Assembly: GCA_963666115.2 (NCBI GenBank)
Contig: CAXXET010000004.1
Span: 205,247-269,246, forward strand
Length of the DNA stretch: 64,000 nt
Direction: 5' to 3'
Origin: Dehalococcoidia bacterium
GTDB taxonomy: Bacteria > Chloroflexota > Dehalococcoidia > UBA6926
A program made the position numbers and the translations under genes. The notes beneath the pieces are model-generated. The model worked only from the letters and a program-made list of their open reading frames with translations, was not told where the DNA came from and ran no database searches. Positions 14,063-63,875 of the stretch are shown here, in pieces; position 1 is the stretch's first letter, and each line of letters starts with the position of its first letter.

Positions 14063-14109
14063 TTGCTCTCCTCTCTCTGTTTCTCTCGGTTGTTCGGTGT
14101 AAGGCAGCG

Positions 14110-32700: not shown

Positions 32701-33127
32701 TCTCGATCAGCGCGAGGAGCTTCTGATTCGAATTGAGGACGTGGAACGTGGCACGCGGCGTGGTTTCGAGGTCGATTTCGTCTGAGCCGTCGGTTGGCAC
32801 GAGGAATGTTGAGGATCGGACAGTCAATACTTCACGCTCGGCCAGGCCGTCAAATGCAGACGTGACGCCGGAATGAACGCGGCGCGTTGCGCGTTCATAG
32901 ACCTCGCGGTCGATGCCCGATGTCTGGAAATGGACTTCGAGATCGAGGGATTCTTCATCAGCGTTCGTTATGGCGTGCTGGAGGCCAAGGTCGCGGAGCG
33001 CCTGGGTGTAGATGACGATGCTGGCCATGGTGGCCGCCGCGACAGTGGCGCCGATCAGCACGGGCAGCAAGAGGGGCGCGTACGTGCGCAGCCGGCGCAA
33101 GACGAGCGGCAAAAGCCTGATGCCCAC
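29768..33127 (-). CDS. Very large FtsX-family ABC transporter permease
   Basis: About 1120 aa with two FtsX-type TM bundles separated by long soluble regions. A GTG start at 33127, 1 nt after the upstream stop, is preferred over the overlapping ATG at 33205. Confidence 0.75.
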   Translation of the reverse strand: MGIRLLPLVLRRLRTYAPLLLPVLIGATVAAATMASIVIYTQALRDLGLQHAITNADEESLDLEVHFQTSGIDREVYERATRRVHSGVTSAFDGLAEREVLTVRSSTFLVPTDGSDEIDLETTPRATFHVLNSNQKLLALIESMAQPGAVETVDGVVTVEAVAMRQGAEYLGLEIGDTVPFVPFWEDKTSKINVRITGFAVPVDPDSHYWDAPALQRLVREPTLLSTLPVIVPAETLVDTVGSLFLKADGSFYSRYYTSPYDIRAADSERFARAIAGLNGGLGGSVDSYRQTTELDDVLNTYDTRIRFIEAPIAIMLFLVTAMVLYAIVFLAGLVTDRQRADAALLRSRGARTPQVLQIYAVQGLLVTAAASVAAPFIAAGLIASIGFLPVFSALGDGGPLRVSVSPLAFALAGVGGLLAFAVLLIPTLRLARRNLLEERRLIVRPNQVGFVQRYYLDVGLAVAGLIFLWQLGQQGSLVADALSGQQGADLFLLLIPTLFLLSAGLLLLRVLPLIGGLVARIAAPVSPTWLALGLWQVGRNPLSVTRLVLLLVLAAGLGAFAASFGGTLDRSYEERARYEAGADARIVGAAIANSQGPTQDMQALVESPDGVAAAARVFRSSAGFAAGSSTDRFEALAVDAPTLKNVTWWRDDFASNSLDETLDAVGGESIENWGIRLPDDARHMGLWVRSAEQPDPLSNLTATIEDGNGRFFTIFLGALESTDWSYREAALEPIRRRSWGRSVPTIQPAAPFTLVSLQIVQRSRSEGMSGGAFYVDEIMTRTVAEGSEPVSVRRFTGRDDLAVIQIGPLTRTDSLQLLGGAGRDGGPSLLFSWGATTAFVQRGFYAGPQVYQLPMLVSPGILRSSGLRVGDILDIGVGSARVPGTIVDVVDFFPTMNLTEGAGYVITEIQGLLRHQNLVGQGQETQANEVWYRLDEGLTGDERTEALRGIMESVGANNIIDRRDLIAASQADPLVAAGWGALLLVAYGAVLFLGGTCFVAHSILTVGERGRQFALLRTMGLNGPQIRAVVWFEHMLVVGIGIGAGFLLGQRTGALLMPFLDRTQDGVAVLPPYIIETSAVSIGIVYALMAAVFVAATAFVVRMYNTLALGQTLRIGED

Positions 33128-33128
33128 G

Positions 33129-36100
33129 CTACGCCTCCGCCCCGCGCAGAACCCACGCGACGGGCTGGGACACGTATGCCCGCCACAGGGTGGCGGCCAG
33201 GCCAAGGCCGGTGGCGCATATCAGCCCAATCACCAGCCCCGCCACCTGCCAGTCCGGCGACAGGATCAGGCTCGGCACAGGTTCGGTTCCGGCGAGACCC
33301 TGGAATCGCGGCACGAGAATCCAACTGAGGTAGCCGCCAGCGGCAATTGCGCCCGCTCCGGCCGGCAGCGCTATCGACACGTATTCAACAGCGAAAGACA
33401 CCAGCGCGGTGACACGGGCCACGCCAAGCGCGCGCAGTACGGCGTTCTCTCGCGCGCGGTCAGAGGCTGCGCCTGCGGCATGAGCCGCGACGCCAACGGC
33501 CAACGCGCCGATGCCCCCGATCAGGGCAATCAGTGTCATGCCGCGCCACCCGGCGGACGCGAGCGGGCTTTGCTGTGTCTCTTCCTGGATGGCGATGCGG
33601 TCCACGACTTCGCCGGAGTACCTTTCATCGTTCACGATTGCATCCAAGATAGCCGTTCTTTCGTCAGGCGCGGCGGGCAGAGAGAGAAAGACGCGGTTCG
33701 GCCAGAGCTTCTTGGTGACGCTGACTGCGTTGACGTGGTCAATGAGCGACTGGCCGTTGGCGACAAGGAAGCCTGCCGAGCCGGGCTCAATTGTGGGGAA
33801 TGCCGCAAGCGAGCCGACGATGCGGATGGGAACGAGCCGGTCTGCCACGTGCACCGCCGCCAGGCTTCCCACCTGCCAGCCGCGATTCAGCAGGAGATCG
33901 TCGGAGGCGAGCATTGGTATGGAGGATGCGCCGGGGGAGATGTAGATGCCGCGCACGCCGTCGCGCGTATCACGACCCCATGCGAACTTGAGCGTGCCTT
34001 GCCGTTGGCCTGTGGATGAGCCGGCCTCGATAACGTCGCGGCGTTCTCCGGTCAGCAGGATCGGCAGCCAATCGGCGGCCTCGTCAAAGTCCTCCACCGG
34101 CGTCTGGATGCCTGCGGCATTGATGGCGACAAAGTCGTCAAGCTCAAAGCTGCCGGGCGTCCCGTTCGCGCCTTCGACAGGTTCGTAGATCATGATGCTG
34201 TTGAGGGTGTAGGGGCCGGGGGGAGGCGGTTGGCTGCCGCGGGAAAGCCGCGTTTCAAGGAACCGCCAGCCCGAAAAGTCCAGCGCGCCGAGGCTGTACG
34301 TGTCCGGTCTCCCGAGCCCATCAATGATCTGGAGCCACAGGAAACGGTTGGCCTGCGCGCGTTCGGGGTTCACCCAGATGCCCACGCGCTGCGTTCCGTC
34401 CGGGATGACGCGCGGAGGCGCGAGTGATTCGTTCGTGATCGCAAGCTCAATGAGAAGCTGCTCCATGGGCACGTCTGCGTAATCGTCCCGGAATTCCAGC
34501 AGTCCGCCGATCGTGGACGGATCGACACCAATAAGCGGGACCAGCGTGCCTACCTGGATGGAGCCGAGACCCGCCTGGCTGGAGTACGCGGCAGAGGCGT
34601 CGCGGACACCGTCAAGCGCCCGATACGTCGCCGTCACCTCGTCGAATGACTTGCCGTCGAACGCCCGGTGGCGGTCGATGCGAACGTCGACGCCCGCCTG
34701 GAATGTCGCCTGGTCTGCCGCAGCCCTGTCCAACGTGCCGCCAAATGTAGCGACAAAGACTCCGAGGACGCCGAAGAGGAGCAAGAGGCCGGCGAGGGCC
34801 GCCGCAGGCGTGGAGGCGCGGTTGACGCGCTCCAACGCCACGTCAACCGGCAAACGTCCGAGGGCGCGGGCAACGGCGGCGGCAATCCGTATCCCGAACG
34901 GCAGCAGGCGGTAGAGGAGCAGCAGCGCGGCGAGCGTCATGGCAATGGGCACGATGAGCACTGTGCGGTCAAGCTGCGCCGTGCCGTCCGTTTGCGCGAC
35001 GGCGACGCCCTCCTCGACGCCTCGAATCTCCACCTGCCAGAGGATTGCGGCGGCGATTACGAGGAGAACGACATCAAGGTGCAGGCGGCGGAACCAGGGA
35101 AGATTTGTTGGCCGCGACCGCTCGCTCTGGAGCGTTGAGACGGGGACGCGGGAAGCGCCAATCACCGGTATGGCCATGACGGCAATCGTGAGGGCGACGC
35201 CCGCGGCGAGCCACGGCAGAATGGGAACAATTGGGGCGGGCGTAAGACTCGCACCGTCGAGGGCAGTTTTCCACGCTCCAAGCTCACCGAGTCCACGAAT
35301 TGCCCCGTAGGAAATAAGGGGCGCGAGGGCTGCGGAAACTATCGTTGCGCCGAAAGCCCACGCCAAAATCAGCGCGACGGTTCTCCCTCCTCCCGCTCCC
35401 CTGCTCCGCAGCAGGCCGACAATTCCCTCCGTCGTCCGCCCAACAGTGAAAGCAATCATCGTCAGCGCGTAGAGCAGGATTGCAGCGACGATAACGAGAA
35501 CAATAACGAGGGGCATCCGGTTGCGGGCGACCTCATCCCGGAAATCGGGCAGGCTGTTCGCGAGCAACGATATGAAGAGGCTGCGCGGCGCCTCCGCGGT
35601 GATTCGCCCTTGCAGGCTCGCCACAGCCGCGTCGGCATCGGCAAGCCCCATGTCGAGCAGACGGTCAGGGTTGACGTAGAGGGTGTCCGAGATGCTGCCG
35701 AGTAGGGAAGGCGTCTCCGCGCCGATACGGTCAACAAGGGTCTGTTCAGGCAGGAACAGGCTGACCATCCACAGGCCGGCATCGTTTCGCTCCGCGTCTA
35801 GCCGCGCGTAAAACAGTCCGCCAACCTGGAACCAGTAGCGTTCTTCGGGATCGACCGGTTCCACGATGCCCACGAGGACAGCGTCATGAGGCGTGGCGGG
35901 CGGGGGGAGGCGGGTGTTGAGGCGGAATTGCTGGTCGATTTGGAATCCGGTCTTCTCTGCGGCAGCCCTGCCAAGCATGACTTCAATGGGGCCGCTTGAG
36001 ACGAACTGCGCCCGCCGGCCCTCGACAATCTGAACTTTCTCGTCAAAACCCGAGCGGGACGTCAGCGTCGCGATTACGTCCGGTTCGTCCGTTCCGGTCA

Positions 36101-36425
36101 ACGCCGTGCGAATGGAATAAGCGGTTGAATAGACCCCGCGCCGATCCAGCGCGTCGCCAAGCGTGTCCTCGGCGGCGGCGAGTATGACCTGCCGGGCGGC
36201 GTTGTATTGCTCCGGCTCGAACGACGAGTAGCTTGTGGAGACGAGGACATCCAGGTTCCTGGAGTTGCGTTCAAGGTAATCCTGGAAAGCAAGGCGCTCC
36301 ACGGTGCTGAGATAAAGAGGGCCGAGAACGGAAAGGGTAATCGTCAGCAGGATTCCAAGGGATGCCACGAGCGCCAGCGCCCTCTTGCCCCTCGTCTGTC
36401 TCCACGCCAGCCGCCATGGCGACAC
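33129..36425 (-). CDS. Very large FtsX-family ABC transporter permease
   Basis: 1098 aa. It has a canonical FtsX N-terminus (WRLAWRQTRGKRALAL), two TM bundles and large extracytoplasmic segments. Confidence 0.8.
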   Translation of the reverse strand: MSPWRLAWRQTRGKRALALVASLGILLTITLSVLGPLYLSTVERLAFQDYLERNSRNLDVLVSTSYSSFEPEQYNAARQVILAAAEDTLGDALDRRGVYSTAYSIRTALTGTDEPDVIATLTSRSGFDEKVQIVEGRRAQFVSSGPIEVMLGRAAAEKTGFQIDQQFRLNTRLPPPATPHDAVLVGIVEPVDPEERYWFQVGGLFYARLDAERNDAGLWMVSLFLPEQTLVDRIGAETPSLLGSISDTLYVNPDRLLDMGLADADAAVASLQGRITAEAPRSLFISLLANSLPDFRDEVARNRMPLVIVLVIVAAILLYALTMIAFTVGRTTEGIVGLLRSRGAGGGRTVALILAWAFGATIVSAALAPLISYGAIRGLGELGAWKTALDGASLTPAPIVPILPWLAAGVALTIAVMAIPVIGASRVPVSTLQSERSRPTNLPWFRRLHLDVVLLVIAAAILWQVEIRGVEEGVAVAQTDGTAQLDRTVLIVPIAMTLAALLLLYRLLPFGIRIAAAVARALGRLPVDVALERVNRASTPAAALAGLLLLFGVLGVFVATFGGTLDRAAADQATFQAGVDVRIDRHRAFDGKSFDEVTATYRALDGVRDASAAYSSQAGLGSIQVGTLVPLIGVDPSTIGGLLEFRDDYADVPMEQLLIELAITNESLAPPRVIPDGTQRVGIWVNPERAQANRFLWLQIIDGLGRPDTYSLGALDFSGWRFLETRLSRGSQPPPPGPYTLNSIMIYEPVEGANGTPGSFELDDFVAINAAGIQTPVEDFDEAADWLPILLTGERRDVIEAGSSTGQRQGTLKFAWGRDTRDGVRGIYISPGASSIPMLASDDLLLNRGWQVGSLAAVHVADRLVPIRIVGSLAAFPTIEPGSAGFLVANGQSLIDHVNAVSVTKKLWPNRVFLSLPAAPDERTAILDAIVNDERYSGEVVDRIAIQEETQQSPLASAGWRGMTLIALIGGIGALAVGVAAHAAGAASDRARENAVLRALGVARVTALVSFAVEYVSIALPAGAGAIAAGGYLSWILVPRFQGLAGTEPVPSLILSPDWQVAGLVIGLICATGLGLAATLWRAYVSQPVAWVLRGAEA

Positions 36426-38614: not shown

Positions 38615-39412
38615 ATGGCAATGACAGGTTCATCGGATGTTGTCCTGTACGAGAAGCGGGATCGAATCGCGTACGTGACGTTGAATCGACCGGAGGCGAT
38701 GAACGCGCTGAACTCAGCGGTGGGGGCGCGGCTCTATGAAATCTGGAGCGATTTCCGCGACGATGACGACCTGCTCGTCGCGATTATCACGGGAGAGGGC
38801 GGACGGGCGTTTTCCGCCGGCGCAGACCTGAAAGAGGTGAGCGGCAGGCAGGCTGAGGGGAAATCTCAATTCGAGGAGCGGGGGCCCGGCTCTCGATTCA
38901 TTCCCGATCTCAATGTCTGGAAGCCGATCATCGCGGCCATTGACGGCTATTGCGTGGCAGGCGGCCTGGAACTGGCGATGCAATGCGATATCCGCCTCGC
39001 AACGGAGAAGTCGCAGTTCGGCCTGCCGGAGCCGCGCTGGAGCATCATGCCCGCCTACGGCCTGCACCACATGATGCGGATGGTTCCAACAGGCGACGCG
39101 CTGCGGATGATGCTCACGGGCAGCCGCATCACGTCCGATAACGCGCTGCGGATCGGCCTCATCCAGGAGGTGCATCCGGACCGCGACGCGCTGATGGAGG
39201 CGGCCCAGGGAATCGCGGAAGAGGTCAAGCTCTGCGCGCCGATGGCCGTGCAGGCGATCAAGCAGATCGCGTACGTTGGCCGCAGTATGGCGCCGGAGTA
39301 CTCATACCGGTTCGCGCAGGAGTTGAGCGCGAAGGTGCTGGGCAGCGAGGACGCGGCGGTTGGGCCTGCGGCGTTCGCGGAGCGGCGCACGCCGGAGTGG
39401 AAGGGGCGGTAG
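38615..39412 (+). CDS. Enoyl-CoA hydratase/isomerase family protein
   Basis: YVTLNRPEAMNAL, GEGGRAFSAGADL and DGYCVAGGLELA are present. Confidence 0.85.
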   Translation: MAMTGSSDVVLYEKRDRIAYVTLNRPEAMNALNSAVGARLYEIWSDFRDDDDLLVAIITGEGGRAFSAGADLKEVSGRQAEGKSQFEERGPGSRFIPDLNVWKPIIAAIDGYCVAGGLELAMQCDIRLATEKSQFGLPEPRWSIMPAYGLHHMMRMVPTGDALRMMLTGSRITSDNALRIGLIQEVHPDRDALMEAAQGIAEEVKLCAPMAVQAIKQIAYVGRSMAPEYSYRFAQELSAKVLGSEDAAVGPAAFAERRTPEWKGR

Positions 39413-42334: not shown

Positions 42335-42443
42335 GACTCACCCCCAATCCACATGATACTCACCATGCGCGTTGATGAGACTAGAGTTTACACTGAATAG
42401 GGATGCTTGTGCGCCCACATTTCTGTTCACCCGGGTGAGGGAC

Positions 42444-44156
42444 ATGACTCCGTCTGCCGAATTCGTTGACCTGATCCAGATTCTCGGTGTCGCCACCGTT
42501 GCGGCCGTTGCCGCGACGCTGCTGCGACAGCCGATTGTCGTCGCGTTTATCTTTGTCGGCGTCTTCGTCGGCCCGGCCGGCATCGACATGGTGCCTGCGG
42601 ATTCTGAGTTCGTTGACCTGTTCGGGCGCGTGGGAATTGCACTGCTGCTCTTCGTCGTCGGCCTGAAGCTCGATCCCGCGCTCATCCGCACAGCCGGTTT
42701 CGTTGCCGTCGTCTCCGGCCTTGGACAAGTGATCATCACGACCATCATCGGTTTCCTGATTACGTTCATCTTTGGGGTCGATCTCCTGTCGGCGCTTTAC
42801 ATCTCGCTTGCGCTAACGTTCTCGAGCACAGTCATCATCGTGAAGGTTCTCTCCGACCGGCGCGAGATCGACTCACTCCATGGGCGCATCGCGCTCGGCA
42901 TCCTGATCGTGCAGGACATTGTCGTCATCGTTGCCCTCACCCTGCTGTCCGGCCTCGAAGGGGCGGAGAGCGCCGAGTCGACCCTCCAGCAGTTGGGGCT
43001 GAGCGTGCTGCGCGGGGCGGCGCTTGTCGCAGCCATGATCATCATGGCGCGATTCCTTCTCCCGCTCATCGAGCCGCGCCTGCTCACAACGCCTGAAGTG
43101 CTGGTTCTGGGCGGCATCGCGTGGGCCGTGCTCATGGCGGCAGGCGCAACGTGGGCGGGATTCAGCCCAGAGATGGGCGCGTTCGTCGCAGGCATCGTGC
43201 TAGCGACCAAGAGGCCGCGCCAACTGGTGGCCGCCCGCCTCACCACCGTTCGAGACTTCCTCCTGCTCTTCTTCTTCGTGAGCCTGGGAGTTCACCTACA
43301 CCTTTCCGATTTGCAGGACCAACTCCTGGGCGCGATTGGGCTTTCACTCTTCGTGCTGGTGGGCAACCCGCTTATCGTCATGGGCATCGCCATTGCAATG
43401 GGTTTCCGCGCCCGCACGGGCCTAGTTGCCGGAATGGCGCTCGCCCAGATCAGCGAATTCTCCTTCATCCTGATGGCGCTGGGGTTGGATCTGGGCCACG
43501 TGGACGAATCCAGCCTTGCCCTCGTCACGCTGGTCGGGCTGATCACGTTCGCCGCGTCCACGTACATGATCACGTACGCCAACCAGATATACAGGTTCTT
43601 GCAGCCCGTGATGAGCAAAATCGAACGCCCCGTCGCGCATCGGGAAGATGAAATCATCGATGAGGCGGATCAGCCCGTCCAGGTTCTTGTTTTCGGAACG
43701 GGGAGGCTGGGCACCGTCATCCTCTCGCGGCTGCGCGAGATTGGCGTTGAGGCGATGGGCGTCGATTTCGACCCCGTCGCCGTGCGGCGTCTACAGGAAC
43801 TCGGATTCCACATGAGATTCGCGGATGTTGAAGCCCCGGAATTCCTGCAAGGGCTGCCCCTGTCGTCGGCGCAGATGGCGGTGTCAACTATTCGCGCGCC
43901 CGATATCGAGGTGGGACTCGTCGAGGCGCTGCGGGACAACAACTTCCGCCGCCCCGTCCTCCTGACCAGCCAATCGGCCGCGACGGCCCATCGCCTTGAA
44001 GACCTGGGCGCGACGCTTGTGCTGCTGCCGTTTGAAGCCGCGGGCGAGCGGGCATCGGAGATGATCGAGGAAACGCTGCGCGATCCGACGTACCTGGAAC
44101 GCGCCCGCTCCAGCCCGCGCGCTCCGGTGGAGGATGAGTCGCTGGAGGAGCAGTAG
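42444..44156 (+). CDS. Cation:proton antiporter (Kef-type) with a C-terminal RCK/TrkA-N domain
   Basis: It has an Na+/H+ exchanger-family TM domain and then the Rossmann motif VLVFGTGRLG. The start is taken at MTPSAEF (42444). Confidence 0.8.
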   Translation: MTPSAEFVDLIQILGVATVAAVAATLLRQPIVVAFIFVGVFVGPAGIDMVPADSEFVDLFGRVGIALLLFVVGLKLDPALIRTAGFVAVVSGLGQVIITTIIGFLITFIFGVDLLSALYISLALTFSSTVIIVKVLSDRREIDSLHGRIALGILIVQDIVVIVALTLLSGLEGAESAESTLQQLGLSVLRGAALVAAMIIMARFLLPLIEPRLLTTPEVLVLGGIAWAVLMAAGATWAGFSPEMGAFVAGIVLATKRPRQLVAARLTTVRDFLLLFFFVSLGVHLHLSDLQDQLLGAIGLSLFVLVGNPLIVMGIAIAMGFRARTGLVAGMALAQISEFSFILMALGLDLGHVDESSLALVTLVGLITFAASTYMITYANQIYRFLQPVMSKIERPVAHREDEIIDEADQPVQVLVFGTGRLGTVILSRLREIGVEAMGVDFDPVAVRRLQELGFHMRFADVEAPEFLQGLPLSSAQMAVSTIRAPDIEVGLVEALRDNNFRRPVLLTSQSAATAHRLEDLGATLVLLPFEAAGERASEMIEETLRDPTYLERARSSPRAPVEDESLEEQ

Positions 44157-44352
44157 CTGCCGTCTAGTCGATGACGCCGATGCGCGGGCGCAGGCCGCGC
44201 TCCCGGCGTGTCAGCCGGAATCCGGCGCGGGACTCCGTTCGGTCGCGCTGTTTCGCGGCATCCGCCCACCCCTCATGGGCGAGGAGGCGTTCCTTGACGG
44301 CCAGCCCGCCGCCGAATCCGGTAAGGGCGCCGTCCGCGCCCACGACGCGATG

Positions 44353-44766
44353 TCAAGGGACGACGACGCCGAGCGGGTTGGCGCCAACCGCCTGCCCGAT
44401 GGCGCGCGCCGCCTTTGGCCTGCCGATGGCGTGCGCCACGTCACCGTATGTCCACACCTTGCCGGCGGGAATCTCGGTGAGGGTCTGCCAAACGGCGCGC
44501 TGGAAGTCCGTTCCGCCGTCCATGTCCAGCGGGCCCGAGAGATCCATCTCCTCCCCGTTCGTGTAGCGCGCCAGCGCGTCCGCCCAGTGGTTGAGAACCT
44601 CATTGGCAGGATCGTCATGGAGGAGGCCGGGGATGTCCGCGCGCTCCTGCTCGATGAGCGCCCGATCATCATGCGGCCCCAGGACGGCTTTCAGACCCTT
44701 TGGCGAGGCGATAAGGCCGAGGAATCCGAGCGGCGTCGAAATAACCCTGTGACCGTTAGCGTGCAT
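44353..44766 (-). CDS. ogt: Methylated-DNA--protein-cysteine methyltransferase (Ogt/MGMT), reading frame stopped by TGA at the catalytic-Cys codon
   Basis: It has the N-terminal domain, then FQRAVWQTLTEIPAGKVWTYGDVA...RAIGQAVGANPLGVVVP followed by TGA. The same frame continues [17 protein letters not shown]...LAHEG to a TAG at 44164. See the finding at 44164..44766. Confidence 0.8.
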   Translation of the reverse strand: MHANGHRVISTPLGFLGLIASPKGLKAVLGPHDDRALIEQERADIPGLLHDDPANEVLNHWADALARYTNGEEMDLSGPLDMDGGTDFQRAVWQTLTEIPAGKVWTYGDVAHAIGRPKAARAIGQAVGANPLGVVVP

Positions 44767-47104
44767 CTGCGGTTCTCCTTCTCACCCTGGCGCGTCCCCT
44801 CGGCACGAATCTCAGCAGCGTCAACGCCAGCAGGCCGAATACGATCGCGCGCCATGAGAACGGCCTGTCCGGCGCGGCGTCCTTATCAGGACCATACAGG
44901 ACATGGTCGTACCATTGCACCACGCCGTACAGCGCCCACGTTGCGCGAGGCCATGCGGCGGACAGGCGGCTGATGTACTCCGCCGGCGTCTCATCGGGCC
45001 TGGTCTTGACCCCCGCCAGCCGTCCAAGCCGGACGGTTCGCGCGTATGCCCGCCCGGCGGTGCGCGGCCGCGCCAATGCCTGCCACCAGAAGAACACGAG
45101 GATTGAGAGGCCAACGACGCCAAGAATTGCGCCCGCTCCGTACCAGACCCTCGGATCGATCCCCACGTCCGGCAAAATCCCGGCGCCGGCATCGTCAAAC
45201 TCCTGGTCGGCGGCGTCGAGGAAGCTGTCCTCCTGCAGCAGGTCTGCTTCCTCAAATGCGAACGCGCCGAGATCGCCCGCAAGCTCAAGGTCAACGTCGG
45301 GAACGAGCGCGGAGAACGTCCCCGTTGGCCCGCCGGGCGCGTCCGGCTCAACGTTCGGCGTCGGCTCAAACGGAATCCACCCGTACCCGGGGAAATAGGC
45401 TTCCGCCCACGAATGGAGATCGGTCTCGCGAACGACGAACGCGCCCAACTCGTCGTTGTACTCGCCGGGCAGATAGCCGACTGCCAGCCGGGCGGGGACC
45501 CCCACCGCGCGCAGCATCACCGTCATGGCGGAACCGAAGTACTCGCTGTAGCCTGCCTTTTCGCGGAAGAGGAAGTGTTCAAGGCCGTCAACGCCCGGGG
45601 GCGGGGCGTTGATGTTTTGGGAGTATTCGAGCTTGCGCAAGTATTCACGGATGGTGACGGCCTTGAGGTACGGCGTATCGGCGTCTTCGGCCCAGGTTTC
45701 CGCCAACTTGCGGACGCTCGGCGGCAAGTCGTCCGGCAACTGCAGATACCTCTCTGCCACCCAGTTTTTGTATTGGGGAGTGAGCGTGGTGATGTCCTCG
45801 ACCGTTACCTGCGGGACGTAGGTTTGGACGGTATACCGCTGGTTGGGCTGCAACACGTCCGGGCTTTCCAGCTTGACCAGCCGATGGCCCTCATCGACGT
45901 CAATGTTGGTGAATTGGGCCTCGACGGGCAGGGTTGTGCGGAGAGGGGTGGCGGCGGTAAAGACGGTGGTCGCGGGGGCCTTGAGTTCAAAGGTCACGTT
46001 CCGAACACACTCCGGGCAGTTCGTGTAGCTGCTCCCCGCAATGTCCTCCAGTCCTCGCCGCTCATCGACGACCATCGGGCTGTTGCTCCAACCCCAGCCC
46101 GCGTAGCGGTCATAGGTCCGCGCGCGCCAGTACAGCCGCTCATCGCTCTCGACATGCATCAAAATATCGGAGGGGAGGTTGATGTTGCCCCTGAACGGCA
46201 GCTCATCCGTGAAGCCGGACAGCCCCATCGACCGGCGCGCGGGCAGCGAGGCGAAGATGCGCGTGAACGTGCCTTCGGCGTTGCCGATGGGAGACCGCAC
46301 TTCCGCCCAAAATGAGCGGACGACGCGCGGGCCTGAGCCAAGCGACGGCGTCACTGTCACGACGAGGAACACGATCAGCGCAAACCAGATGCCGGCGTGC
46401 ATGACGTGGGCAGGCAGCCAGGACCCCTGCGCGGCTGTCTGCTCATCCCATTTGCGGCTGCGTTCAAGATGGACGAGGCGGACGATGAGCAGGGCGGAGG
46501 CGAGCAGGAACGCCATGAAGAACGGGAGGGAGCTTGGCGGCAGGTAGGTCAGGTTGGTGACGATGGCGAACCCTGCCGGCAGCGTGGCCCAGATGTTGCG
46601 CAGCCGCAGCGTCAGGTAGACAGTCACGTAGGCAACGGCCCATGCGCCCAGCAGGAGCAGGAAGACGAACGTCAGCCTGTCCGTGCTTGCGCCGCCCTCC
46701 AACAACGCCTGCGCCCACAGCGTCATGCGGTAGACCGCGCTCAGCGCCCTGCCCTCCAGACTAGCCCCGGCCACGACCGTCAGCGTTTGCGCGAACGCCT
46801 GCGCCAGCGCGATGAACAGGGCAACCGCGTGCTGGACGACATGACTGCGGCGATGCTTCGCGTTGATCAGCCCCGCCGCGCCCCCGATGAGCACCGCAAA
46901 CGCCACCCCCGGAATCACGGGAACCCAGTGGGCATCCTCAACGCTCCAAACAACGATCGCGGCGACCATAAACGCCAAGCCAACCGTCAGCCATCCCGTG
47001 TCCGGGTACGCCGCCGCCCGATGCCACGAGCGCGTCAGCCACGGCGGCACGTCGACGGGCTGGGCGGGCGGCATCCGCTGCTCTGCCGTGCTCACGCTCC
47101 CCAC
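44756..47104 (-). CDS. Transglutaminase-like membrane protein (TgpA-type)
   Basis: It has multiple N-terminal TM helices and the transglutaminase core region GYSEYFGSAMTVMLRAVGVPARLAVGY...DLHSWAEAYFPGYGWIPFEPT. It is the last gene of a MoxR-DUF58 operon. Confidence 0.8.
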   Translation of the reverse strand: MGSVSTAEQRMPPAQPVDVPPWLTRSWHRAAAYPDTGWLTVGLAFMVAAIVVWSVEDAHWVPVIPGVAFAVLIGGAAGLINAKHRRSHVVQHAVALFIALAQAFAQTLTVVAGASLEGRALSAVYRMTLWAQALLEGGASTDRLTFVFLLLLGAWAVAYVTVYLTLRLRNIWATLPAGFAIVTNLTYLPPSSLPFFMAFLLASALLIVRLVHLERSRKWDEQTAAQGSWLPAHVMHAGIWFALIVFLVVTVTPSLGSGPRVVRSFWAEVRSPIGNAEGTFTRIFASLPARRSMGLSGFTDELPFRGNINLPSDILMHVESDERLYWRARTYDRYAGWGWSNSPMVVDERRGLEDIAGSSYTNCPECVRNVTFELKAPATTVFTAATPLRTTLPVEAQFTNIDVDEGHRLVKLESPDVLQPNQRYTVQTYVPQVTVEDITTLTPQYKNWVAERYLQLPDDLPPSVRKLAETWAEDADTPYLKAVTIREYLRKLEYSQNINAPPPGVDGLEHFLFREKAGYSEYFGSAMTVMLRAVGVPARLAVGYLPGEYNDELGAFVVRETDLHSWAEAYFPGYGWIPFEPTPNVEPDAPGGPTGTFSALVPDVDLELAGDLGAFAFEEADLLQEDSFLDAADQEFDDAGAGILPDVGIDPRVWYGAGAILGVVGLSILVFFWWQALARPRTAGRAYARTVRLGRLAGVKTRPDETPAEYISRLSAAWPRATWALYGVVQWYDHVLYGPDKDAAPDRPFSWRAIVFGLLALTLLRFVPRGRARVRRRTADAR

Positions 47105-48348
47105 CTCTCGGGCCGCGTGAAGCTGCGGCGGTTGCCCGGCTGCATGGCAATCGGGCCCAGCGCGTTGAAGCTCAGGGCGCGCCCGATGTCATCGCCGAGC
47201 CGCACGATATACGCCGCGACGCCCATCGAATACAGGCTCGCAAGTTCGGCGGAGTGGTCGCCGGACGCGCCGAAACTCGTCGGCTCCAGCAGGATGACCG
47301 CCCCGGGCGAGTTCCGCTCTTGCAGGATGGACGCGGCGGCGATGGCGTCTTGCACAGACGGGGTGATGGCGATGACGCCGGTTCGACGGCTGAATTGCGC
47401 CTCGTGGATGCCGAGCAGTTCACCCAGGCTGACCCTGCCCTCCGCCCGGCACAGCGCTAACGCTTCCAGGATGCGCCACAGGTGCTTGTCGCCGGTTCCG
47501 TTGGGGATGGTGTATTCGGAATCGCCGATGGCGGAGAAGCCCACGCCGTTGTCGAACTCCAGCAGGTAGCGCGCGATGGAGGCGGCAACCGTGACGCTAA
47601 CCTCTTCCGTGCCGCTCAGGCCCTCGCCCACCTGCACAGCCGCGTTGAGGTCGAGGAGTATCGAGAGATCGGACTGCACCTCCGTCTCGAACTCCTTGAC
47701 CATGAGGCGGTTGAGCTTCGCGCTGCTCTTCCAATGGATGCGGTTGAGGCTGTCGCCAACGGTGTAGCGTCGAACGGATACGACGTTGGGCGTGAACTGG
47801 GACGTTGCGCGGTAGTCCGGCGCGTCGCCCGTCTCCTCCGCGCTGGAGATCACGAAGTCGTCAAGCGGGAACGGGGCCGGATAGACGACCAGTTCGCGCC
47901 GCTCGCCGATGACTCGCGTCGTCTCGAAAAGGCCGAACGGGTCGGACGCCGTGACGCGCAGCGGCCCCCAGTGAAAGCGGCCGCGCTTGTCCGCGCGCGT
48001 TCCCAGTTTCGTCCAGTTGCGCGAGCCGCGCGTGGGCACGCCCATGACCTCGGACGCAAGCGCAGGAACGTCGCCGATGTCCTCGATATGCAGCCAGGGG
48101 CGCGGCAGGAGGGAGGTATTTTCCAGCCACACGGACTCCTCCACGCGCTCCCCCACCTGCGCCAGCGACGGCTGATCGTCCGCGCCCGCGCTGATTCCGC
48201 GCAGGCTCAGCTTCGTCCACAGCCACGCCAGGATGAACACGGCGATGACGGCGCTGAGCAGATAGGACATGACGTAGAATCCCGACCCAAGGGTCAGGAA
48301 GAGCGCCATCAGGATCAGCGCGCCCAGATAGACGCGGCGACTCCGCAC
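47092..48348 (-). CDS. DUF58 domain protein
   Basis: VRRYTVGDSLNRIHWKSSAKLNRLMVKEFE signature, with the usual position downstream of MoxR. Confidence 0.85.
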   Translation of the reverse strand: MRSRRVYLGALILMALFLTLGSGFYVMSYLLSAVIAVFILAWLWTKLSLRGISAGADDQPSLAQVGERVEESVWLENTSLLPRPWLHIEDIGDVPALASEVMGVPTRGSRNWTKLGTRADKRGRFHWGPLRVTASDPFGLFETTRVIGERRELVVYPAPFPLDDFVISSAEETGDAPDYRATSQFTPNVVSVRRYTVGDSLNRIHWKSSAKLNRLMVKEFETEVQSDLSILLDLNAAVQVGEGLSGTEEVSVTVAASIARYLLEFDNGVGFSAIGDSEYTIPNGTGDKHLWRILEALALCRAEGRVSLGELLGIHEAQFSRRTGVIAITPSVQDAIAAASILQERNSPGAVILLEPTSFGASGDHSAELASLYSMGVAAYIVRLGDDIGRALSFNALGPIAMQPGNRRSFTRPERWGA

Positions 48349-48357
48349 GCTGCCCCC

Positions 48358-49332
48358 TCAGTTCCGCAGCCACCCTCGCGGCACGGCTCCCGGCACAGGC
48401 ACGCGCTCCAGCACCTGCGCCAGCACGTCGTCGGTCGTGACGCCCTGCATCCGCGCGTTCGGGTTGAGGATGATGCGATGCCCCAGGATCGGGCCGACCA
48501 GCCGCTTGATGTCGTCCGGGAGCACGTAATCACGGCCGTCCATCACCGCGCGGGCCTGCCCCCCGCGAAAGAGTGTCAGCGCCCCCCGCGGCGATGCACC
48601 CACGTAGACGGAGCCGTGCTCGCGCGTGCCGTCCACGATGTCCACGATGTACCGCTTGATCAAATCGTCCACGTACACCTGCCGCACCGCCTGTTGGAGG
48701 TCCAGCGCCTCCTCCGTCGACGTGACCGGCTCGATGGAGTCTATCGGGTGTTCGAGGCGCGTTCGATCCATGATTTCCATTTCGGAATCGATCGTCGGAT
48801 AACCCAGCGAGAGGCGCAGGAAAAAGCGGTCGCGCTGCGCTTCCGGCAGCAGGAACGTCCCCTCATGCTCCAGCGGGTTCTGCGTGGCGATCACGTGGAA
48901 CGGCTGCGGCAGCGGGTGCGTCACGCCATCCACCGTCACCTGCCCCTCCTCCATCGCCTCCAGCAGCGCGGATTGGGTCTTCGGCGTGCCGCGGTTGATC
49001 TCATCGGCAAGGAGGACGTGCGCGAGAACGGGGCCTGCGCGGAACTCAAACTCGCCGGTGCGCTGGTTGTAGAGGTTGACGCCAATGACGTCCGTGGGCA
49101 GCAGATCGGGGGTGAACTGGACGCGCTTGAATGACGCGCCGAGGGAGACGGCAACGCTGCGGGCCAGCATCGTCTTGCCGACGCCAGGCACGTCCTCGAT
49201 CAGGAAGTGGCCGCCGCCCAACACGGCCGTCAGCGCAAGCTCCGCCGCCGCGCGCTTGCCCACGATGACCCGTTCGACGTTTTCCAACGTCTTGTCCACA
49301 ACCTCGCGCGCGCGGTCAACCGTCGCTGCCAC
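48358..49332 (-). CDS. MoxR-family AAA+ ATPase
   Basis: HFLIEDVPGVGKT Walker A, LLADEINR Walker B and ATQNP sensor motifs are present. Confidence 0.9.
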   Translation of the reverse strand: MAATVDRAREVVDKTLENVERVIVGKRAAAELALTAVLGGGHFLIEDVPGVGKTMLARSVAVSLGASFKRVQFTPDLLPTDVIGVNLYNQRTGEFEFRAGPVLAHVLLADEINRGTPKTQSALLEAMEEGQVTVDGVTHPLPQPFHVIATQNPLEHEGTFLLPEAQRDRFFLRLSLGYPTIDSEMEIMDRTRLEHPIDSIEPVTSTEEALDLQQAVRQVYVDDLIKRYIVDIVDGTREHGSVYVGASPRGALTLFRGGQARAVMDGRDYVLPDDIKRLVGPILGHRIILNPNARMQGVTTDDVLAQVLERVPVPGAVPRGWLRN

Positions 49333-49391: not shown

Positions 49392-50087
49392 ATGAGCACC
49401 CACGATTCACACCCCAACAACCACCTGACCGCCTGCATTGTGGCGGGAGGCGACGTTACGCCCGGCGAGCGCGTCATGGCGGTGCTGCGGGAGAGCGGCA
49501 TCATCATCGCCGCCGATCGCGGGCTGAATACGTGCCTGGAGCTGGGCGTCACGCCGACGCTGTGCATCGGGGATTTCGATTCCGCGTCAGAGGATGCCAT
49601 TCGGACGGCGCGTGAGCGTGGGTGGGTATTGCTGGAGTACCCATCGGAGAAGGCAGCGACGGACGGGGAACTGGCGCTGGATGAGGCAATCGCGAGGGGC
49701 GCGACGAAGATTCGGATACTGGGCGCGTTGACCGGTTCGGATCGGATGGATCACGGGGCGGCGAACCTGCTGTTGTTGGCGCGGCCGGATTTAAGGGGAA
49801 TCGACATCCGGCTGATGGATGAGAACCGGGAGGCGTTCGTTCTTGGGAAGGGCGAATCGGCGTCCGTCTCAGGCCAGCGCGGGGATTACGTGACGCTGCT
49901 GCCGCTCTCGGAGACGGGCGCGACGGTGACGACGTGGGGGCTGAAGTACGATCTGCTCGGCATCACGCTCCAGTACGGCGCGACGCGCGGGGTCAGCAAT
50001 GAGCTGGTGTGGGCGGATGCGAATATCACGGTGGAGGAGGGGCGGGCGCTGGCGGTGCAGGAGCGGGTGCTGCAAACGGGAATCTAA
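49392..50087 (+). CDS. Thiamine pyrophosphokinase
   Basis: 231 aa. ...IIAADRGLN...CIGDFDS... and the C-terminal thiamine-binding beta domain pattern are present. Confidence 0.75.
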   Translation: MSTHDSHPNNHLTACIVAGGDVTPGERVMAVLRESGIIIAADRGLNTCLELGVTPTLCIGDFDSASEDAIRTARERGWVLLEYPSEKAATDGELALDEAIARGATKIRILGALTGSDRMDHGAANLLLLARPDLRGIDIRLMDENREAFVLGKGESASVSGQRGDYVTLLPLSETGATVTTWGLKYDLLGITLQYGATRGVSNELVWADANITVEEGRALAVQERVLQTGI

Positions 50088-51257: not shown

Positions 51258-51920
51258 TCAGTAGTAGCGCCGTGTACCGTCGCGGAAGATGTCAGACTCG
51301 GTGCGGATGGCGGAATTGATCCGGTTGTAGGCAGTCTCGTCTCCTCTCTCGTGCTTGCGGAAGACAGCCCAGCAACAGTAGTCGGCAATTTGGAGGCCAT
51401 AATGGGAGCGCGAATCATGGTGCGCTATGCGATAGCGCGTTCCTTCCGGCAACATGTTTGCCAAGGTGACCTTAATCGCCTTTTCGACGGCCCGGCGCCT
51501 CTTCTGCACGGGAAGACTGTCAGTAATAATGATGACCTCATCGGTGTCAGGATGCGATGACCTTGCGAGCAAGTCCCCAAGCAAATGCCCCAGCATCTGC
51601 GGGTAAAAGCGCCCATCGGCTCTGAGAGCCGGCTCTGTCTTGCTCTTCTCCACAATGACGCTGTCCACGTGTATGCCAGCCAAGCCGTTTGAGATGATGT
51701 CAAACACGTGCCCACGCACACGAGGGTTGTCCTCTGAACAGTGAAAGTACTCCTGTTCCACACCTTGCTCAAGAAGATCATACTTGTACGAATCGAGCGT
51801 CTCATTCAATCGAAATGGCCTCCGCATGCTGACACCGGTTAGCGCGAAGAAGCGTGTGCCGCTCACGCTAAAGTCCAGATTGCCGGATTCGTCAAGGAAT
51901 ACGTACAGCGCCTCGTTCAA
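51258..51920 (-). CDS. DUF3800 domain protein
   Basis: The N-terminal YVFLDESGNLDFS is characteristic of DUF3800. It lies in an AT-richer segment. Confidence 0.7.
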   Translation of the reverse strand: MNEALYVFLDESGNLDFSVSGTRFFALTGVSMRRPFRLNETLDSYKYDLLEQGVEQEYFHCSEDNPRVRGHVFDIISNGLAGIHVDSVIVEKSKTEPALRADGRFYPQMLGHLLGDLLARSSHPDTDEVIIITDSLPVQKRRRAVEKAIKVTLANMLPEGTRYRIAHHDSRSHYGLQIADYCCWAVFRKHERGDETAYNRINSAIRTESDIFRDGTRRYY

Positions 51921-52006
51921 GAGATTGCCGCCCCCTCAGCCGCCCAATTGCCGCATGGTTCACCCGCTTCCTGGGCGAGTATAGCAATCCCCAGCCCTCA
52001 GCCCCC

Positions 52007-52076
52007 CGCTCACCCTGAGCCTGTCGAAGGGCGAACCCGCCCGCACCGTCTTTCCCGCGAACGCGGGAATCCAGCC
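52007..52076. repeat. Mosaic repeat: family A (inverted, 52007..52032) + family B hairpin (52051..52076)
   Basis: It contains cgctcaccctgagcctgtcgaagggc and tttcccgcgaacgcgggaatccagcc. Confidence 0.75.
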
Positions 52077-52152
52077 CCCGCCCTCTCATTCCGGCGAAAG
52101 ACCACAGAGGGCGACGATTTGACACATCTGCTCTACAGACAGCATAGTACAC

Positions 52153-52350
52153 ATGAGCGCAGTACTTCGGAAGCCTTACGGAGGTTCGGAAATGATGGTG
52201 GGAATGATGGTCTCGCTGGGAATTCTTGGCCTGGGGTTGCTCCTAATCCTCGTCGGACTCAACAGCCCCCTCTCGCTAATTCAGGTTGGTATCGGCATCT
52301 TCTTGGCAGTGCTTGGAGCAGCGGGATTTCTCTTATCGCTGAAGAGATAA
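52153..52350 (+). CDS. Small two-TM membrane protein (hypothetical)
   Basis: 65 aa with two hydrophobic helices. No homology recognised. Confidence 0.3.
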   Translation: MSAVLRKPYGGSEMMVGMMVSLGILGLGLLLILVGLNSPLSLIQVGIGIFLAVLGAAGFLLSLKR

Positions 52351-52390
52351 TATGCCAGCCGCCAGCTATATGTTCCAATCCCGTCCCCGT

Positions 52391-52417
52391 CATTCCCGTG
52401 ACAACGGGAATCCAGCC
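52391..52417. repeat. Repeat family B copy
   Basis: cattcccgtgacaacgggaatccagcc shares the gggaatccagcc end with 52065..52076. Confidence 0.65.
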
Positions 52418-52591
52418 CGGCTCCCGTCCACGCAGGGCGAGCCACAATTCCCTCCTCCATTTCAGCGCGGTGGGCCACAATGGTGTCACGCTTGCAAACG
52501 CAGAACGTCGGAGCTATCATATGCTTTCTAGGACGACTACATCGGGGTTTCCACCCGTGGTCAAATCGACGCCGCAACGGCAAGGGGGGCA

Positions 52592-52903
52592 GTGATGATT
52601 ATTGTGCACTTAGCGATTCTGGCGCTGGGAGCCGTACTTGGCTTCCGAGCGCACTTGCTGGCAGCAGTGCTGTCGGCGGCATACATCATGATGTGGTACG
52701 TTGCGATTGAGCCGTGGATCCAAGGGCTTGGCGGTAACACGGTATCACTTGTGTCATTGCTATTGGCCGTACCTACCGCCTTGCTGGCAGTCCTAACCGT
52801 CGTCGCGTGGTGGCTGGCCGCAGGCATCATAGTGGGGTTCGCGCTAAGGTGCCTTACAGTTGGCACGCTCCACCTTCTGGGAAACCTCGGAGGTGGGCGC
52901 TAA
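52592..52903 (+). CDS. Small multi-TM membrane protein (hypothetical)
   Basis: 103 aa with 3-4 hydrophobic helices. No homology recognised. Confidence 0.3.
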   Translation: MMIIVHLAILALGAVLGFRAHLLAAVLSAAYIMMWYVAIEPWIQGLGGNTVSLVSLLLAVPTALLAVLTVVAWWLAAGIIVGFALRCLTVGTLHLLGNLGGGR

Positions 52904-52963
52904 GGCTGGTGGGCTAAACTTCCTGAACCGGAAGTTGCTTCTTTGGGGTAACCTGCCGTCCCC

Positions 52964-56509: not shown

Positions 56510-56515
56510 CCGTGT

Positions 56516-59500: not shown

Positions 59501-59764
59501 GGTGGGCGCCAAGCCGCTGTCGGTCAGCCTGAAGTTCCGCCCCTCCGTCCGGCCGGGGTCCACGTCTTCGATGGACGTGGGATCGCCGAAGAGGAATCGC
59601 GTTTGGCCGACGTTGGCGAGCAGGTCAGCCAGCAATTCATAGCCGTAGATGCTGAAGTAGGCGGAGACGACGTCAAAGTTCGCCGCCGCGTCAAGATGGG
59701 TTCGCAGGCGATCCACCACGCGGCGGTCGGGGGTGTTATCCAGCAGGTAGTTGGGGTTGGACAC
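56516..59764 (-). CDS. PLD-family nuclease domain fused to an SNF2-family helicase
   Basis: 1082 aa. It has a single HKD motif [20 protein letters not shown] (His121), then SNF2 motifs ADSVGLGKT and [11 protein letters not shown], and helicase-C ...[36 protein letters not shown]. It lies 6 nt upstream of the methyltransferase gene. Confidence 0.85.
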   Translation of the reverse strand: [1082 protein letters not shown]

Positions 59765-63747: not shown

Positions 63748-63789
63748 GCTCATTGCAATCCGGAAACGCCGGGGCGTTTCCGCAGCCTC

Positions 63790-63875
63790 TTCCCTCCGCT
63801 GGCATTACCCAGCTCAGGTTCCGACGGTCGCCCCGATTCATGTGTCGGGGCCTCTCAGCCGGGCTCACCCAGCTC
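63790..63875 (-). promoter_or_regulatory. TPP (THI-box) riboswitch aptamer
   Basis: The minus strand reads GGGUGAGCCCGGCUGAGAGGCCCCGACACAUGAAUCGGGGCGACCGUCGGAACCUGAGCUGGGUAAUGCCAGCGGAGGGAAG. It contains the conserved CUGAGA and ACCUGA..CUGG.UAAUGCCAGCG blocks. Confidence 0.85.

Follow-up and report, generated by a model that had tools for sequence, protein, structure and literature searches.

A probable selenocysteine codon at the active site of an Ogt/MGMT alkyltransferase gene in Dehalococcoidia

What is a TGA codon doing exactly at the catalytic-cysteine position of a DNA alkyltransferase? In the 64,000-nucleotide stretch of Dehalococcoidia DNA analysed here (the window), a minus-strand reading frame opens with an ATG (44766..44764), reads ...AIGQAVGANPLGVVVP, and then meets a TGA as codon 138 (44355..44353), past which the frame stays open for 62 codons up to a TAG (44166..44164). 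The original prediction saw in this either a selenocysteine (Sec) codon or a very recent nonsense mutation. On re-reading the sequence, its placing of the TGA at the Cys codon of the P-C-H-R-V signature proved exact, and the coordinates hold for its intact continuation, which stops 7 nt from the stop of a convergent Na+/H+ exchanger gene (42372..44156). Here we put at roughly 0.88 the probability that this is a functional O6-alkylguanine-DNA alkyltransferase (Ogt/MGMT) gene with selenocysteine as its catalytic residue, a reading that draws on comparison with relatives of the gene.

The features of the locus are collected in Table 1. The first 11 nt of ogt are shared with the 3′ end of the gene before it, and the MoxR, DUF58 and transglutaminase block and ogt are probably one operon. 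The order MoxR–DUF58–transglutaminase is common to all Sec-type loci and to the Cys-type locus L055. One gene of the clade (L054) is six codons longer at its 3′ end than the others.

Table 1. Features of the alkyltransferase locus and of a second alkyltransferase gene, in positions of the window.
Feature	Position	Strand	Remarks
Sec-type ogt/MGMT, complete CDS	44164..44766	minus	200 sense codons including UGA-138, then TAG (translation)
In-frame TGA, codon 138	44353..44355	minus	catalytic Cys position of P-C-H-R-V; putative Sec codon
Pro codon before UGA	44356..44358	minus	CCT in 21/21 genes (context CCU-UGA-C)
Frozen synonymous stretch, codons +4..+8	44321..44343	minus	GTG GGC GCG GAC GGC, plus possible GU/AC stem extension
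Apical SECIS-like hairpin	44325..44341	minus	GGGCGC-GGACG-GCGCCC; 6 bp, perfect; starts 11 nt past TGA
Basic C-terminal tail	44167..44268	minus	about 35 aa beyond usual Ogt end; kept in Sec-type genes and syntenic Cys-type orthologues
True stop TAG of full-length protein	44164..44166	minus	same position in 20/21 clade genes
Shine-Dalgarno AAGGAG	44775..44780	minus	8 nt before ATG, within 3′ end of upstream transglutaminase-like gene
Upstream block: MoxR AAA ATPase, DUF58, TgpA-like transglutaminase	44756..49332	minus	Pfam matches
Cys-type Ada, second alkyltransferase of the window	21736..22884	minus	intact PCHRV

The read-through translation, with Cys put at position 138, scores 115.8 bits against the NCBIfam model TIGR00589 (ogt; cutoff 46.4), and PF01035 is annotated (precomputed) in all relatives. 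The P, H, R and V of the signature are present and invariant, the nucleophile position being the UGA codon. Y107, R121, N130, H139, R140 and E159 are all intact, the first three of them invariant among 38 aligned relatives; the corresponding Tyr, Arg finger, Asn hinge and Glu of human AGT are Y114, R128, N137 and E172 (in part from PMC4150793). An AF2 model of the Cys-type orthologue P0032, which is 57% identical to the window protein, has a mean pLDDT of 92.5; its top Foldseek matches are Mycobacterium tuberculosis OGT and E. coli Ada-C (E about 2e-13), with TM-scores (Foldseek, normalised to target) of 0.81–0.85 against known structures. By way of this model, the two-domain MGMT fold is predicted for the family of the window protein. 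With the Cys-type structures of M. tuberculosis OGT (4BHB), E. coli Ada-C (1SFE) and human AGT (1EH6) it would share this fold, the helix-turn-helix, the Arg finger and the Asn hinge, as well as the residues that flank the nucleophile in PCHRV. Unlike all three, it has UGA as the nucleophile codon and a basic C-terminal extension of 35 residues, part of which forms helix at high pLDDT in the P0032 model and which has a dN/dS of 0.078.

We compared the gene with its counterparts in 20 retrieved species-representative Dehalococcoidia genomes, which with the window make 21 genes, related loci being taken from the best 80 matches. In all 20 relatives the same 603-nt gene has TGA at the Cys position followed by an intact 62-codon continuation, which includes ...RPR.G.ID, and by the hairpin discussed below. 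The protein database holds 39 clusters (90% identity level) that are 94–58% identical, and in every one the protein breaks off at residue 137/138, just short of the Cys position; among the database proteins more than 59% identical to the window protein, none is of the Cys type. Matches with 68–69% coverage and lengths of 164–173 aa were considered as further truncated forms and rejected, since they are ordinary Cys-type proteins. Downstream of the TGA, dN/dS is 0.077 at a dS of about 0.72, the value for the N-terminal part being 0.12; these ratios show strong purifying selection on the downstream part at the level of the protein.

The half of the original prediction that supposed a recent nonsense mutation is thereby refuted. 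More broadly, a pseudogene, or a mistake of base calling or assembly in this record, is an extremely improbable explanation: far from being unique to this assembly, with TGC or TGT in its close relatives, the TGA recurs in 20 independently assembled species genomes and in the 39 protein clusters, and no decay is seen downstream of it. Such a loss might have been covered by the Cys-type Ada encoded in the window (NCBIfam Ada, 367 bits, cutoff 345; PCHR from residue 349). This second alkyltransferase domain had been correctly recognized, but the suggestion that it makes loss of ogt tolerable is needless since ogt has not been lost.

The clade instead forms one side of a Sec/Cys pair, with TGA in its members against TGY in 95 other MGMT genes. 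Three sister genomes (L055–L057), which share the synteny of MoxR, DUF58, transglutaminase, ogt and antiporter with the Sec-type loci, have TGT or TGC at position 138, and the stretch that corresponds to the hairpin varies in sequence among them.

The hairpin itself is as first described, a perfect GC stem of 6 bp placed 11 nt 3′ of the TGA. In the minimal fdhF element, too, 11 nt separate the UGA from the foot of the stem. Between UGA and loop there are 17 nt here. The MFE of −12.5 kcal/mol becomes −13.7 when two more nucleotides are included at either end (z = −2.8 to −2.9 relative to shuffled sequences); the fold energy of the whole region is not unusual for its GC content (z = −0.4). [quoted passage not shown] All four constraints hold here (loop GGACG of 5 nt, stem of 6 bp, spacing of 17 nt, −12.5 kcal/mol). 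The objection that the loop lacks the usual G-U does not stand, as the published model wants G followed by G or U, and GGACG fits. Like the E. coli fdhF-type SECIS and the bSECIS consensus, the element is a hairpin inside the coding sequence just past the UGA, with a small apical loop that starts with G-G/U. It differs from the fdhF type in having GGACG rather than GGUC as its loop, no bulged U and an all G-C stem, and binding by SelB is putative.

The bSECIS model is loose, its energy limit being passed also by 12% of Cys-type genes, and the stronger evidence lies in frozen synonymous sites. Codons +4 to +8, which make up most of the hairpin, are identical in 21 of 21 genes while neighbouring codons vary freely. 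Among 99 degenerate columns with an invariant amino acid, only eight use a single codon in all 21 genes, and five of these eight are the contiguous codons +4 to +8; codon +9 changes from GCC to GCT only, which retains a G-U pair. RNAalifold puts the hairpin at the apex of an extended helix whose eight pairs all form in every clade gene (20 distinct sequences), the sole change being G-C to G-U in three of them. There are no compensatory double changes in the hairpin among the 21 clade genes; covariation is not measurable because the hairpin sequence does not vary, so the structural evidence rests on conservation. The same 23 nt in 95 Cys-type MGMT genes have a median MFE of −4.7, with one gene as stable and four reaching −10; strong hairpins at this spot in a few Cys-type genes, L095 and L056 among them, are there by chance. 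One such hairpin is thus uncommon but not decisive, whereas its presence together with the frozen synonymous sites in 21 of 21 TGA-type orthologues is decisive. The pattern of codon use shows that the hairpin is under RNA-level selection. With the Sec/Cys pair and the conservation of the UGA across species, this bSECIS-fitting, constrained hairpin supports the selenocysteine half of the original prediction.

A mutually exclusive hairpin (CGYGUY-GUG-GGCGCG, 99% paired, 3 nt after the UGA) was considered and rejected as the SECIS. It is weaker (−6.9), its 9-nt spacing lies outside the model, and it leaves the freezing of codons +7 to +9 unexplained. The Pro codon just before the UGA is also invariant in the clade; another Pro codon of the same gene varies there among CCG, CCA and CCT, and Cys-type relatives have CCA, CCC or CCT before the Cys.

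Could the UGA nonetheless be mainly a true stop? The main product would then be a 137-residue N-terminal fragment with the helix-turn-helix, extended by rare near-cognate read-through (Trp/Cys), and the downstream part and hairpin would have a role in regulation or in the stability of the mRNA. In bacteria UGA is recoded only in part, with a figure of 30–40% given for E. coli in one source (PMC4513850), so that a truncated product is probably made beside the full-length one; the CCU-UGA-C context is also invariant. We nevertheless regard this as very unlikely, as the low dN/dS over the 62 downstream codons shows that the peptide is selected as protein, and H139, R140, E159 and the C-terminal helix that the fold requires are all encoded past the UGA. 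Trp or another residue as nucleophile would leave the enzyme inactive, and the geometry of the hairpin is that of a SECIS.

Another reading, for which we see an even smaller chance, is a split gene with two products, one of 137 aa that begins at ATG 44766 and one of 59 aa that begins at GTG 44343, which assemble into a nucleophile-free DNA-damage sensor of the ATL type. An open reading frame with a GTG start does exist (44343..44164), and the Cys-lacking ATL proteins are a known branch of the family, present among the structural matches and with the same DNA-binding domain as the window protein. There is no Shine-Dalgarno sequence before this GTG, however, and the H-R-V codons that lie between TGA and GTG are conserved as protein in the same frame. 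The break also falls exactly on the Cys codon, always as TGA and never as TAA or TAG, in the clade and among the matches listed. Known ATLs, moreover, have the Cys replaced by another residue within a single chain. They use a sense codon for the non-nucleophilic residue and are without the N-terminal domain, whereas the window gene has a putatively recoded stop and retains that domain.

If the UGA is read as Sec, the reassignment is not global. TGA is the stop of glmU, glmS and a metF-like gene, as originally pointed out for these three, and of the roughly 50 coding-like ORFs of the window it ends about 14 in all. No second selenoprotein gene came to light in the 64 kb: coding frames interrupted by TGA were sought twice in the window and once in the 20 flanking loci, and all proved to be adjacent same-frame gene pairs (e.g. 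MoxR and DUF58). Neither selA, selB, selD nor a tRNA-Sec gene is present in the window or in the loci of about 12 kb from the 20 relatives; this search covered about 3% of a genome of about 1.9 Mb, and the absence of sel genes there therefore says little either way. In the window, ARAGORN and Rfam gave only a tRNA-Gly and a TPP riboswitch, with no tRNA-Sec, and Pfam and NCBIfam searches of its coding-like ORFs (every one of 200 aa or more and the majority of the shorter ones) gave no Sec-related family. Two ORFs are about as long as SelA and SelB, but the one of 463 aa is GlmU and the one of 615 aa GlmS. When E. coli SelA, SelB and SelD (approximate queries) were compared by tblastn with the window and with all the loci retrieved, there was no match in the clade; one SelA match adjoins a deltaproteobacterial Sec-MGMT (locus L344).

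Sec-containing MGMT is already known, as a selenoprotein family catalogued since 2005, and the present case leaves what is known of recoding unchanged. The original prediction had mentioned such homologues from marine metagenomes, and rightly so: the family, defined as a PF01035 protein with U at the Cys position of PCHRV (PMC1287953 and reviews), is listed for Carboxydothermus, GOS and Olavius symbionts. Carboxydothermus hydrogenoformans CHY0809 (ABB14497.1, 2005), compared here by its description, resembles the window gene in PF01035, in a UGA at the catalytic Cys of PCHRV and in a stem-loop right after the UGA, and its family was likewise predicted by Sec/Cys homology; the window gene differs in its lineage, Dehalococcoidia, and in the extra basic C-terminal tail. 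In BSepDB, MAGs of Dehalococcoidia rank with the bacteria richest in selenoproteins, and our literature search on selenoproteins in sponge Chloroflexota found nothing relevant. In a pattern scan of species genomes, 117 of the 120 matches listed are genuine TGA-type MGMT genes, so that at least 117 species genomes carry the same TGA, in more taxa than in older surveys, which gave one to two sequences each. Those among the matches listed come from Nitrospinota, Nitrospirota, Planctomycetota, Desulfobacterota, Bacillota and others, have their hairpins at the same site, and belong to taxa rich in selenoproteins, one being a Nitrospinota MAG credited with 54 selenoprotein genes. The best bSECIS-type hairpins have a median energy of −7.5 in these TGA-type genes as compared with −2.8 in Cys-type genes (p = 8e-9).

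This recurrence of TGA-type MGMT in many known Sec users, among the matches listed, also bears on whether the recoded UGA could be read as Cys. A tRNA of the tRNA-ReC (selC*) type, acting through SECIS and SelB, would make the product an ordinary Cys-Ogt. A 2026 survey reports that tRNA-ReC decodes UGA as Cys given a downstream SECIS, its authors hold that this limits any purely bioinformatic Sec call, and the conserved UGA, the hairpin and the translated downstream part would fit insertion of Cys equally well. Besides the recurrence in Sec users, two points leave this reading only a slim chance. In that survey tRNA-ReC accompanied canonical tRNA-Sec and occurred in only about 2% of Sec-type genomes without the UXXU motif, and, with TGT and TGC one mutation away, there is no evident reason to keep a TGA and a hairpin for Cys across 21 species.

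With Sec as the preferred reading, we asked where the Sec state came from. The nearest relatives outside the clade are the syntenic Cys-type Dehalococcoidia genes (53–58% identity, bit scores 179–201), while other Sec-type lineages among the matches listed reach at most 46% identity over comparable length, with a best bit score of 130. Because the nearest relatives are Cys-type and syntenic and the other listed Sec-type lineages are more distant, the Sec state was most likely acquired independently and in place, when TGY became TGA in a Cys-type orthologue. Judged by these sequence relationships, the gene looks to belong to the Sec-type MGMT family by shared feature and not by a single origin or common descent of the Sec state. 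A more speculative and rather doubtful possibility is that MGMT is a hot spot at which selenoproteins have arisen again and again, with a ready-made hairpin and an origin by a single change. The near-palindromic, G/C-rich codons for V-G/A-x-x-G-x-L, the conserved peptide that directly follows the active site, may already form, in some Cys-type genes, a suitably spaced SECIS-like hairpin. In that case one substitution, from TGY to TGA, would yield a working Sec gene in any Sec-competent lineage, and the Dehalococcoidia clade, whose Cys-type positional orthologue survives, would be a clean case of such a change in place.

How such a gene might work can be proposed by analogy. As in characterised bacterial selenoprotein mRNAs, with the ribosome at UGA-138 the hairpin 11 nt downstream would sit just outside the mRNA channel, where it would bind SelB-GTP carrying Sec-tRNA(Sec), outcompeting RF2; Sec would be inserted and translation would run on for 62 codons to the TAG. 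The conserved CCU-UGA-C context may weaken termination. By analogy with the family and with engineered human AGT, the protein would then flip out O6-alkylguanine and take the alkyl group irreversibly onto the selenolate, so that one Sec residue would be spent per repair. Human AGT C145U, with Sec at position 145, is active and protects E. coli from MNNG. It has Sec at the same residue of the same motif, and the N137/H146/E172 network of hAGT corresponds to N130/H139/E159 here; C145U was made by a SECIS-free UAG/EF-Tu route, whereas the window gene is natural and has UGA and a downstream hairpin.

MGMT acts in a single turnover, and the usual rationale for Sec, faster catalytic turnover, is therefore inapplicable; long retention of Sec would point to another benefit. 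Candidates are a nucleophile that is already deprotonated, independently of activation through the Asn, or resistance to oxidative or nitrosative inactivation. A natural selenoenzyme spent by each reaction, whose positional orthologue in sister genomes is Cys-type and whose own genome also encodes a Cys-type Ada, would offer a clean natural system for asking what Sec provides beyond catalytic rate and how a SECIS arises within a constrained coding sequence. Public gene calls end the gene at residue 137 in every member found, and none of the 39 clusters is named, so that a probable DNA-repair function has been missed in the whole clade.

Re-reading the ogt gene, which encodes an O6-alkylguanine-DNA alkyltransferase (Ogt/MGMT), bore out every coordinate and sequence statement of the original prediction: an in-frame TGA occupies the codon of the catalytic cysteine (codon 138) in the P-C-H-R-V signature, and the downstream frame is intact. 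The part before the TGA comprises 137 residues ending in ...GANPLGVVVP, and 7 nt separate the TAG from the stop of a convergent Na+/H+ exchanger gene. Translated with Cys at the TGA, the read-through product has 200 residues and reaches 115.8 bits with the NCBIfam model TIGR00589 (ogt; cutoff 46.4); among solved structures, those of M. tuberculosis OGT and E. coli Ada-C are closest to it. As also predicted, TGA is an ordinary stop elsewhere in the window, ending glmU, glmS and a metF-like gene, and ~14 of the ~50 coding-like ORFs.

Features of the window (coordinates in window numbering; aa, amino acids)
Feature	Position	Strand	Remarks
ogt ORF	ATG at 44766, TGA 44355..44353	minus	AAGGAG upstream of start
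ogt continuation, same frame	62 codons past TGA to TAG 44166..44164	minus	
Hairpin GGGCGC-GGACG-GCGCCC	44341..44325	minus	starts 11 nt after TGA; MFE -12.5 kcal/mol
Basic C-terminal tail of Ogt	44164..44268	minus	~35 residues
MoxR AAA ATPase, DUF58, TgpA-like transglutaminase	44756..49332	minus	upstream of ogt
N6/N4 (CcrM-like) DNA methyltransferase	7158..8388	minus	overlapping ORFs 7933..8388 and 7158..7958
Enoyl-CoA hydratase/crotonase paralogues	10486..14988	minus	three in tandem (12270..14988)
Enoyl-CoA hydratase/crotonase paralogue	38615..39412	plus	
FtsX-type permease and ABC ATPase genes	28101..36425	minus	permeases of 1145 and 1098 aa
Thiamin pyrophosphokinase	49392..50087		
Defence-like island	51258..59764		includes DUF3800 protein
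Eco57I-type methyltransferase	52964..56509		in island; 1181 aa
PLD nuclease + SNF2 helicase protein	56516..59764		in island; 1082 aa
Solute-binding protein	62624..63691		ABC transporter operon
TPP riboswitch	63773..63889	minus	58 bits

The basic tail, which typical Ogt proteins lack, is common to the TGA-bearing (Sec-type) genes and their syntenic Cys-type orthologues (loci L035-L057) and is under purifying selection; an AF2 model of the Cys-type orthologue (P0032) predicts it to be partly helical with high confidence, and it may provide an extra DNA contact. The transglutaminase gene overlaps the start of ogt by 11 nt, and the MoxR-DUF58-transglutaminase block, which probably forms an operon with ogt, is kept at all Sec-type loci and at several Cys-type Dehalococcoidia loci.

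The original prediction allowed for a very recent nonsense mutation, a reading that conservation of the TGA rules out. Searching protein clusters (90% identity) with the read-through translation gave 39 matches at 94% to 58% identity, every one 137-138 residues long and ending in ..VP; full-length Cys-type relatives appeared only at <=59% identity. When one genome per species was scanned with an alignment, 20 Dehalococcoidia MAGs were recovered, including several closed chromosomes of ~1.9 Mb, and all 20 carry the TGA followed by the same 62-codon continuation, with an identical stop position except in L054 (6 codons longer). Across the 21 genes of this clade, dN/dS (Nei-Gojobori) is 0.12 before the TGA and 0.077 after it, the latter at a dS of ~0.72, and the downstream part is thus translated and selected. 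Public gene calls of every clade member (clusters P0001-P0056 and P0142) end at residue 137 and are unnamed: annotation systematically cuts short this probable selenoprotein throughout the clade.

At the catalytic codon, TGT or TGC is found in the next relatives (L055-L057), whose gene order is that of the clade (MoxR ATPase, DUF58, TgpA-like transglutaminase, ogt, convergent antiporter), making their ogt genes positional orthologues. The window protein is 53-58% identical to these (179-201 bits) and reaches at most 130 bits with Sec-type MGMT from other lineages among the matches listed. Being nearer to its syntenic Cys-type counterparts, it acquired its TGA by a switch from TGY in place.

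The 6-bp GC hairpin has the sequence and position originally predicted. Bacterial SECIS (bSECIS) constraints are a loop of 3-9 nt starting with G then G/U, a stem of 4-16 bp, a UGA-to-loop distance of 16-37 nt and an MFE <= -7.5 (PMC13188914); the window hairpin lies within all four limits (loop GGACG, 6 bp, 17 nt, -12.5). Selection acts on this hairpin at the RNA level. Across the 21 genes, 99 codon columns hold an invariant degenerate amino acid and only 8 of them use a single codon throughout; five of the 8 are contiguous (codons +4 to +8 downstream of the UGA, GTG GGC GCG GAC GGC), covering the 5' arm and loop together with most of the 3' arm, and another is the Pro codon preceding the UGA, always CCT. 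Given the per-column frequency of 8/99, the probability of five such columns in a row is ~3e-6 per position and ~3e-4 over the gene; the synonymous entropy of flanking codons is ~1 bit. The sole variation at codon +9, GCC to GCT, turns a G-C pair into G-U, and no covariation was seen in the hairpin among the 21 genes, as no position varies otherwise. Among 95 Cys-type genes the corresponding 23 nt have a median MFE of -4.7, and only one gene matches the window hairpin in stability. In the RNAalifold structure the window hairpin caps what may be a longer stem with many G-U pairs. A competing conserved hairpin, 3 nt past the UGA, is weaker (-6.9), too near the UGA, and leaves the frozen GAC GGC GCC codons unexplained.

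The candidate selenocysteine of the original prediction is thus strengthened by the conserved TGA and 62-codon continuation, a hairpin within bSECIS limits and frozen synonymous sites, and we put the probability that this is a functional Ogt with Sec inserted at codon 138 by the ordinary SelB- and SECIS-dependent route at about 0.88. By analogy with characterised systems, SelB and the SECIS would direct Sec into Ogt at UGA-138, and the selenolate would serve as a single-use alkyl acceptor; in a suicide enzyme, faster turnover cannot be the reason for Sec. The purely computational evidence is equally open to tRNA-ReC putting Cys at UGA-138 through the same SECIS, which we regard as very improbable. 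Neither tRNA-Sec, SelA, SelB or SelD nor a second selenoprotein gene was found in the 64 kb or the fetched flanks (~3% of the genome). In the BSepDB paper, Dehalococcoidia MAGs that carry 46-49 selenoprotein genes are named among the bacteria richest in them. A human AGT carrying Sec at residue 145 works in vivo and withstands the N137A substitution, which the Cys form does not (PMC4150793).

The window protein belongs to a catalogued selenoprotein family: a Sec-containing MGMT with a stem-loop past the UGA was reported in 2005 from Carboxydothermus hydrogenoformans (CHY0809; PMC1287953), and reviews of 2022 and 2026 include Sec-MGMT, neither mentioning Chloroflexi or Dehalococcoidia. Earlier surveys count one in GOS data, in agreement with the marine metagenomic homologues mentioned in the original prediction, and two in Olavius symbiont data. 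Scanning species genomes with the degenerate pattern N-P-x4-[VI]-P-TGA-H-R-[VI] gave at least 120 matches, and 117 of the 120 listed prove to be true PF01035 genes in which the Cys codon is TGA and the frame continues intact. Among the matches listed, they occur in the present clade, one other Dehalococcoidia MAG, Nitrospirota, Nitrospinota (including a MAG given 54 selenoprotein genes in the BSepDB paper), Planctomycetota, many Desulfobacterota, Tissierellaceae, Gudongella, other Bacillota, Fusobacteriaceae, Sumerlaeota, Myxococcota and Tectomicrobia. In the 105 listed genes outside the clade, the best bSECIS-allowed hairpin has a median of -7.5, against -2.8 for Cys-type genes (Mann-Whitney p = 8e-9), and is 18-22 nt from the UGA; the loops include GGU, GGUC and GGGC.

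In some Cys-type MGMT genes, too, the SECIS position is occupied by a strong hairpin (L056, around 1722-1790, -11.1 kcal/mol; L095, -14.9 kcal/mol); these hairpins could be latent SECIS elements or could be left over from an earlier Sec state. Because such hairpins are present in a few Cys-type genes, the sequence encoding the residues past the active site of MGMT seems prone to form a SECIS, and this may be why Cys was converted to Sec in so many lineages. Desulfobacterota encode a distinct short PF01035 protein (~110 aa) whose Cys codon is TGA (YKEIAHAL..NPYAPEVP-U-HRVVATSGRIGGF..; L239, L254, L256, L260, L266, L275, L278 and ~25 more loci), twice in OY762721.1; its gene contains the small hairpin AUCC-GGUC-GGAU, with the same loop as the E. 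coli fdhF SECIS.

Elsewhere in the window, the overlapping CcrM-like ORFs encode the N- and C-terminal halves of one methyltransferase, perhaps because the gene is frameshifted or split. There are five enoyl-CoA hydratase paralogues, and the two very large FtsX-type permease genes adjoin two ABC ATPase genes. The TPP riboswitch, scoring above the Rfam gathering score, precedes an ABC transporter operon for a solute-binding protein, a permease and an ATPase.
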